The notes beneath the pieces are model-generated. The model searched no databases, had not been told where the DNA came from, and saw only the letters and a list, made by a program, of their open reading frames with translations. Both the position numbers and the translations under genes were made by a program. Shown here piece after piece: positions 87 to 455 of a stretch of DNA of 926 nucleotides. The stretch is from Escherichia coli (GTDB taxonomy: Bacteria > Pseudomonadota > Gammaproteobacteria > Enterobacterales > Enterobacteriaceae). Each line of letters starts with the position of its first letter. Position 1 is the first letter of the stretch. The DNA is taken from NCBI RefSeq assembly GCF_003334335.1, contig NZ_QOWQ01000138.1; one strand, written 5' to 3'.

Positions 87-455
87 ATGGCAACAAAAGA
101 AGAAAATCAGAAACGTCTTCGTGAACTGGCTGGCCTGCTGGGGCGCGAGGCGGATATGTCGGGGAGTGCAGCGGATATCGCACAGCGTGTGGCAGAGTGG
201 GAAGAGGAGGTTTGCGCATCGGAAAATGAAATCGCAGATGTTGATGATACCGTTTATGAGCAGGCATACAGGAACACCGGTGAGGATGCTTTCGGTATTC
301 TGGAACGTATCATGCTTCTGAAGTGTTTTTACCTGTGCGGTGTTGACGATGAAACAGGTGAGCCTGTTGAGCATGTTGATGCTGGCAGAGTAATTCTGAT
401 GCCCCCCTCAGTGGCAAAAGACATGGTCAGGAGTGGAATGGCCGTTTATGCGTGA
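87..455 (+). CDS. FI: DNA-packaging protein FI-like (lambda gpFI family), 122 aa
   Basis: Complete ORF from ATG 87 to TGA 453..455 with a G-rich RBS upstream. It sits immediately upstream of clear gpFII and gpZ homologs, as in lambda (E-FI-FII-Z). Its size is close to lambda gpFI (about 130 aa). The N-terminus (MATKEE..RLRELAG..) and C-terminus resemble lambda gpFI as recalled from memory, with an acidic central segment. My recall of gpFI is imperfect, so the call rests mainly on synteny. Confidence 0.8.
   Translation: MATKEENQKRLRELAGLLGREADMSGSAADIAQRVAEWEEEVCASENEIADVDDTVYEQAYRNTGEDAFGILERIMLLKCFYLCGVDDETGEPVEHVDAGRVILMPPSVAKDMVRSGMAVYA
429..433 (+). promoter_or_regulatory. Putative Shine-Dalgarno (AGGAG) for the FII-like gene, inside the 3' end of FI
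   Basis: AGGAG at 429..433 lies 14 nt upstream of ATG 448, which is a long spacing. Initiation may also depend on coupling to FI termination at 453..455. Confidence 0.4.

Follow-up and report, generated by a model that had tools for sequence, protein, structure and literature searches.

The phage gene FII in this DNA starts, on the comparative evidence of its relatives, at ATG 448, and its first codons overlap the end of the preceding gene FI by 8 nt. We assign a probability of about 0.6 to the combined reading that ATG 448 is the start and that FII is translated mainly by termination-reinitiation after FI. The overlap probably links translation of FII to that of FI, a coupling that we infer from the layout of the junction and its comparison with relatives. 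The geometry of this junction is textbook and falls in a well-described class, and the overlap itself is ordinary, is already annotated in phage 21, PhiR12-type phages and RefSeq prophages, and represents nothing new in kind.

The analyzed stretch of DNA (the window, 926 bases) is 100% identical to positions 32863-33788 of Escherichia phage PhiR5_1 (PV340545.1), and prophages in 1857 of 5426 complete E. coli genomes also match it at 80-100% identity. It contains the end of E, complete FI and FII genes and the beginning of Z of a lambda-like E. coli phage (Table 1), and the lambda-type order E-FI-FII-Z-U-V is present in the annotated sequences of PhiR5_1, E. coli FORC_069, phage 21, PhiR12_1 and lambda. 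Downstream of the junction, Z is annotated with 534 nt in PhiR5_1 and PhiR12_1 (L001 2317-2850) versus 579 nt in E. coli FORC_069, phage 21 and lambda (L002/L003 2317-2895), and all five have a 4-nt Z-U overlap (ATGA).

Table 1. Features of the 926-base window (positions numbered from its first base).
Feature	Position	Strand	Remarks and basis
Major capsid gene E, 3' end	1..34	+	Stop TAA 32-34; mapped GenBank PV340545.1 and RefSeq annotation
FI SD AGGGGG	75-80	+	6 nt upstream of the FI ATG; duplex -9.4 kcal/mol
FI, DNA-packaging chaperone, 122 aa	87..455	+	Stop TGA 453-455; ORF list, annotation
SD-like AGGAG in FI codons AGG-AGT	429..433	+	14 nt from ATG 448; duplex -7.0 kcal/mol, long spacing; not conserved
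In-frame GTG, chance start codon, not the FII start	433..435	+	No upstream SD; absent from 58 of 83 related loci with the overlap
ATGCGTGA, FII start codon and FI stop codon, 8-nt overlap	448..455	+	Sequence; clade-wide conservation
FII, head-tail joining / stopper protein, 117 aa	448..801	+	Stop TAA 799-801; lambda gpFII alignment, NF049848, annotation
Weak SD AGGGTGA of Z	806-812	+	In the 15-nt FII-Z spacer; duplex -3.9 kcal/mol
Tail gene Z, 5' part	817..926	+	Annotation; 15-nt spacer before Z

Residues 1-117 of the FII product align with residues 1-117 of lambda gpFII (phmmer against PDB, 1k0h_A, E 2.8e-51), which is the protein of PDB 1k0h and of the virion cryo-EM entries. The product scores 52.6 bits with NCBIfam NF049848 (cut-off 25), and PF05354 is precomputed on its homologues. 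This significant full-length similarity places it in the gpFII family (PF05354 / NF049848), and the FI protein was aligned with those of phage 21, PhiR12_1 and lambda; both products are ordinary gpFI and gpFII family members. The 90%-identity cluster that includes the gpFII of the window (448-798) has 789 members, many of them 127-aa proteins named DNA-packaging protein FI, which may be linked to the cluster via rare FI-FII fusion gene calls such as P0002. A scan of viral contigs with the divergent gpFII P0083 returned zero confirmed relatives.

To compare junctions we sampled 341 loci encoding gpFII relatives, taken from viral contigs and representing 77 distinct junction sequences. Among these, 83 loci have the layout of the window and encode gpFII proteins 97-100% identical to its own, and they are referred to here as the overlap clade. 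They comprise three types that differ in the C-terminus of FI, namely the window type (...SGMAVYA), the phage 21 type (...GGMAVYA) and the PhiR12 type (...HGTAEYA).

The initial annotation placed AGGAG at 429-433, GTG at 433-435, ATG at 448-450 and TGA at 453-455, and all four can be read directly from the sequence, as can the base G433 that is common to AGGAG and GTG and the 14-nt spacer (434-447) between AGGAG and ATG 448. The ATG does lie inside the end of FI, as had been described, within its three final codons; the accompanying phrase that it ends 3 nt before the stop is accurate only when counting from 450 to 453, with two bases (451-452) lying between. AGGAG had been called the only SD-like motif, which is essentially right, the other candidate within 22 nt upstream of ATG 448 being a weak GGA at 435-437. 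It had further been pointed out that the N-terminus of lambda gpFII favors 448 while the ORF track starts the frame at 433. Both points hold, in that the alignment with lambda gpFII runs from end to end and the mechanical ORF list begins the FII frame at GTG 433 (122 aa), with FI at 87-455. The N-termini of gpFII homologues were aligned as the initial annotation had suggested, and 30 of 30 diverse homologues begin at the equivalent Met. ATG 448 is also the start annotated in the PhiR5_1 GenBank record and by RefSeq PGAP, and the homologous ATG is annotated in PhiR12_1 and in the curated record of phage 21.

The strongest evidence for ATG 448 comes from relatives in which no upstream start is available. 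In 53 of the 83 overlap-clade loci an in-frame TGA at -24 is followed by no start codon in the FII frame up to the ATG, so that an N-terminal extension is impossible in these loci. Of the 83 loci, 25 retain the GTG at -15 and 58 lack it. Its loss in phage 21-type sequences occurred by ggT>ggC, which is silent in FI (Gly) and hits the second position of the supposed start codon, and a second polymorphism in the 15 nt upstream of the ATG (gcC/gcT) is likewise silent in FI and exchanges Pro and Leu in the putative extension. Both polymorphisms therefore occupy third codon positions in FI and second positions in the putative extension. For GTG 433 itself we found no usable SD, the best duplex reaching -3.6 kcal/mol when the overlapping AGGAG is excluded, and the combination that would mark an N-terminally extended isoform, a conserved upstream start with an SD at 5-9 nt, was not found.

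A genuine or second start at GTG 433, giving a 122-aa gpFII with the extension MEWPF, is extremely improbable in the light of these comparisons. The codon is in frame, the frame is open from position 400, most phage 21-type junctions also have a GTG at -15, and the 122-aa form is annotated in E. coli ED1a (CAR07243.1). That entry is the one public record of the exact 122-aa product, and the 117-aa form occurs on at least 1000 contigs. Against such a start stand the lack of an upstream SD, with AGGAG overlapping the codon itself, the disappearance of the GTG and the stop-codon exclusion of any extension despite 97-100% identity of the gpFII proteins, and the pattern of FI-silent, extension-changing substitutions. 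The presence of the codon is also expected by chance, since the FII frame upstream of ATG 448 is open for 16 codons after TGA 397-399 and the probability of at least one ATG, GTG or TTG in 16 open codons at the base composition of the window is about 0.65. In addition, the homologous N-terminus of lambda gpFII forms a ring of helices (residues 4-24) around gpW, which counts against an extension at this end (PMC10721106). From the lambda alignment, the homologues, the public annotation, the 53 loci with an in-frame stop, the loss of the GTG, the missing SD and the rarity of the 122-aa form we conclude that ATG 448 is the start and that the call at GTG 433 is an artefact of longest-ORF listing. 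GTG 433 and the overlapping AGGAG are by-products of the FI coding sequence.

The overlap itself belongs to the -8 nt class (NTGNNTGA), as ATG 448 begins 5 nt before TGA 453 on the same strand, and the same holds for all 83 overlap-clade loci. The string ATGNNTGA is conserved in every one of them, although their FI 3' ends are of three diverged types. No shorter overlap can exist in its reading phase, as one of 2 or 5 nt would require a stop codon whose last bases open a start codon, or one with G as its first base, and there is no such stop codon. Conservation of the TGA is not independent evidence of selection for the overlap, since it is partly dictated by codons 2-3 of FII (CGT GAT, Arg-Asp). 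Of the 70 co-directional neighboring gene pairs of PhiR5_1, 27 overlap; the overlap is 4 nt long in fifteen of them, 1 nt in three and 8 nt in two. Neither the FI/FII overlap nor the in-frame GTG exceeds what chance would give, and neither is surprising.

Among prokaryotic gene overlaps the -8 class is the third most frequent, after -4 and -1, and is one of three enriched classes; it also falls in the -8 to +10 range of termination-reinitiation, which has been demonstrated experimentally for E. coli gene pairs (PMC12548453, PMC10666635, PMC6728339). The earlier description of the start-stop arrangement as typical of translational coupling is consistent with this literature, where -8 is a recognised spacing class tied to termination-reinitiation (PMC12548453, PMC10666635). 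The window pair shares the geometry of this class as described by Huber et al. (2019, 2023) and in a 2025 J Bacteriol review, with both genes on one strand and in one operon. It differs in two respects, in that genes for subunits of one complex are enriched among such overlaps whereas FI and FII are not known to be such a pair, and in that most overlapping pairs of E. coli have an SD inside the upstream gene whereas that of the window is weak or misplaced.

Across the 341 loci and 77 junctions the gpFII family has two junction designs plus one minor overlapping variant. In the common design, carried by lambda and several Salmonella, Citrobacter and Klebsiella-like lineages, the FI stop is followed by a spacer of 10-11 nt with a strong SD (GGGAGG, AGGGGG or GGAGG) 2-7 nt before an ATG or GTG. 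The best SD duplex of these non-overlapping relatives is -6.1 to -11.6 kcal/mol (mean -9.1, 26 unique junctions), versus -3.9 to -7.0 kcal/mol within 20 nt (mean -4.6, 9 unique junctions) in the overlap clade, and the association of a weak SD with the overlap holds over the whole set. The motif tATGcgTGA is present in all 83 overlap-clade loci, and apart from the AGGAG of the window their best duplexes are -3.9 to -4.9 kcal/mol. In the 22 nt upstream of ATG 448, no other site pairs as strongly with the anti-SD as that AGGAG (-7.0 kcal/mol), and its distance of 11-14 nt is not optimal; the 8 nearest related loci have AAGAG instead (Arg to Lys in FI), and junctions of the phage 21 and PhiR12 types lack the motif. 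The minor variant, found at two loci (L192 and L193, around 1501), has a 14-nt FI/FII overlap ATGAAAGTTATTAA with GGAGGGG 10-12 nt upstream and encodes a gpFII (cluster P0056, 120 aa) with a replaced N-terminus, MKVINIRDN...

The lambda junction (NC_001416, 7600/7612) provides a matched comparison of the two designs. The genes are homologous and in the same order, the gpFII proteins are 70% identical and of equal length, and the C-terminus of lambda FI aligns end to end with that of the window. In contrast to the window, lambda has an 11-nt spacer (TAA cGGGAGGcgct GTG; the junction reads TAAcGGGAGGcgctGTG, TAAcgggaggcgctGTG) with a strong SD 4 nt before the GTG. Lambda FII thus has its own ribosome-binding site, whereas the window combines the 8-nt overlap with an ATG start and lacks an SD at the proper spacing. 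Phage 21 (OL657228, 7807/7800) and PhiR12-type prophages have the tATGcgTGA overlap annotated identically, and their IMG/VR loci encode gpFII proteins 97-100% identical to that of the window. They differ in the 3' sequence of FI, the phage 21 type having an extra in-frame ATG at -18 and sometimes lacking the GTG at -15, and the PhiR12 type having an in-frame TGA at -24 and zero upstream start codons. The FI C-termini of all four types (window, phage 21, PhiR12 and lambda) align end to end, and therefore the two designs differ by a net ~19 nt that includes the SD. The overlap junction is best read from these alignments as a derived form of the gpFI-gpFII boundary, in a clade that appears to have lost the spacer and SD (~19 nt).

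Such a loss would leave the FII start without a well-placed ribosome-binding site of its own. A ribosome finishing FI would hold UGA 453-455 in its A site and GCG 450-452 in its P site, and a backward shift of 2 nt would put AUG 448-450 in the P site, from which translation could restart. FII output would in that case amount to a small and constant share of FI translation, likely with a minor added contribution from direct initiation at the fairly open start site. Reinitiation is the most economical route to FII translation because a well-placed SD is missing. A low output would be enough, as gpFII forms a hexamer and is present in only 6 copies per lambda virion (PMC10721106). Considered as a candidate coupled pair, FI/FII has a weak or misplaced SD duplex for the second gene (-3.9 to -7.0 in the overlap clade against -6.1 to -11.6 kcal/mol in non-overlapping relatives) and a start region predicted to be open. 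The SD contrast with the non-overlapping relatives supports coupling, at the level of sequence comparison, and the link between overlap and weak SD amounts to about one evolutionary event because the overlap clade is a single lineage.

Several observations count against this proposal. Most tested E. coli coupled pairs needed an SD for efficient reinitiation (PMC6728339), and the 14-nt overlap variant keeps its GGAGG 10-12 nt upstream. There is also no obvious need for a fixed FI:FII stoichiometry, as FI and FII are not known as subunits of one complex. A comparable arrangement is found in phage f1, where a small low-copy structural gene lies without an SD at the end of the preceding gene; the f1 case differs in having been shown experimentally and in a junction geometry unlike that of FI/FII. 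Literature searches on lambda, phage 21 and PhiR5_1 returned no work on how FI/FII is translated or coupled. Sampson et al. (1988, PNAS) reportedly dealt with translational control of the lambda late genes. As an evolutionary step, loss of the SD and spacer may have switched FII from SD-driven initiation at GTG, as in lambda, to obligatory reinitiation at an SD-poor AUG located 2 nt behind the P site, a tentative scenario to which we give somewhat less than an even chance.

Predicted mRNA structure bears on two other routes to FII translation. The segment 395-500 folds with an MFE of -28.4 kcal/mol versus -33.1 +/- 3.6 for shuffled controls (z +1.29; 180 of 200 shuffles fold at least as well), and positions 433-455 are unpaired in the centroid structure. 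The probability of being unpaired from -18 to +12 is 0.52 in the window, 0.40 in the phage 21 type and 0.35 in the PhiR12 type, with controls at about 0.35 (0.35 +/- 0.07 for the window). A search of Rfam gave nothing meaningful, with two snoRNA matches far below the gathering score.

The predicted openness of the start region keeps independent low-level initiation as the main rival to reinitiation. Here free 30S subunits would use ATG 448 on their own, helped by an AU-rich start region free of structure and by an SD that is weak or far away (GGA at 10 nt, AGGAG at 14 nt), the overlap would reflect genome compaction, and translation of FI would be irrelevant or even inhibitory for FII. We regard this as unlikely, though several features favor it, as the start region of the window is more open than its neighboring coding windows, the fold of 395-500 is weaker than that of shuffled controls, and FII of the window starts with ATG versus GTG in lambda. 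Moreover, the overlapping E. coli pair bioBF is initiated de novo and uncoupled (PMC6728339), and merely 6 copies of gpFII are required per virion (PMC10721106). Weighing on the other side, the SD is incorrectly spaced and far weaker than in any non-overlapping relative; AGGAG gives way to AAGAG in the closest relatives and is missing from the other two junction types, which do not share the openness either. FI-translating ribosomes would also be expected to occupy the FII start much of the time.

Coupling could alternatively operate by unmasking, in which mRNA structure hides the FII start until ribosomes translating FI melt it, as in atpHA or MS2 coat/replicase. Although unmasking is an established alternative route to coupling (PMC12548453, PMC6728339), it is very unlikely at this junction, as no stable local structure occluding the FII start is predicted within 395-500 and the probability of being unpaired at -18..+12 is at or above that of the control windows in all three overlap-type junctions. 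Termination-reinitiation is the form of coupling that we favor.

Because the FII frame lies +1 of the FI frame and is open from 400, directly ahead of six consecutive C at 402-407, we also considered a programmed FI-FII frameshift, and we rejected it since FI genes of the phage 21 and PhiR12 types have no such C run. The one FI-FII fusion protein examined among the chimeric database proteins, P0002, is the product of a single-copy deletion. The C6 run itself, in Pro-Pro codons of FI right after TGA 397-399, lies where a +1 slip would fuse FI to FII, and we take it as a chance occurrence.

Hairpins were noted elsewhere in the window. The spacer separating E from FI contains a terminator-like GC hairpin (GCGGGGGCG-aaa-TGCCCCCGT) at 42-62, with a T-run after it at 66-71. 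Lambda has an equivalent in the same E-FI position (ATGGCCC-ttcg-GGGCCAT plus a pyrimidine run, L005 1464-1496), and every other E-FI spacer examined has a GC hairpin with a pyrimidine run; the GGCCC/GGGCC stem is common to most relatives, and the stem of the window clade differs. This hairpin may be an mRNA-stabilising or partial-termination element that raises E over the downstream genes. The pyrimidine run after the hairpin is predicted to pair with the FI SD AGGGGG 75-80 within 64-81 (MFE fold of 30-90, z -1.77), and lambda-type spacers have an equivalent pairing of TTTCTCTC with GGAGGAG. Such pairing could dampen FI translation or could be mere pyrimidine/purine complementarity. A second terminator-like hairpin within FII (724-747, GTTTCTCCGGATGACGGGGGAAGC plus a T-poor tail) is probably due to chance, because its tail is weak and it lies inside coding sequence.

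The analysis confirms the public start call for FII (ATG 448, 117 aa), and its significance beyond correct annotation is small; even if coupling were true, the understanding of phage assembly or of translation would be unchanged. It also documents two alternative designs of the FI/FII junction in lambdoid phages. It is mildly useful that lambda and the phage 21/PhiR5_1 group make up a natural matched pair, in which the junction designs are opposite. If the switch following SD loss were true, this pair of near-identical proteins could be used to measure the expression ratio that a -8 overlap imposes and to ask whether reinitiation in E. coli can do without an SD, and if coupling is true the junction would be conveniently suited, as a natural system, to the study of SD-poor reinitiation at such overlaps.
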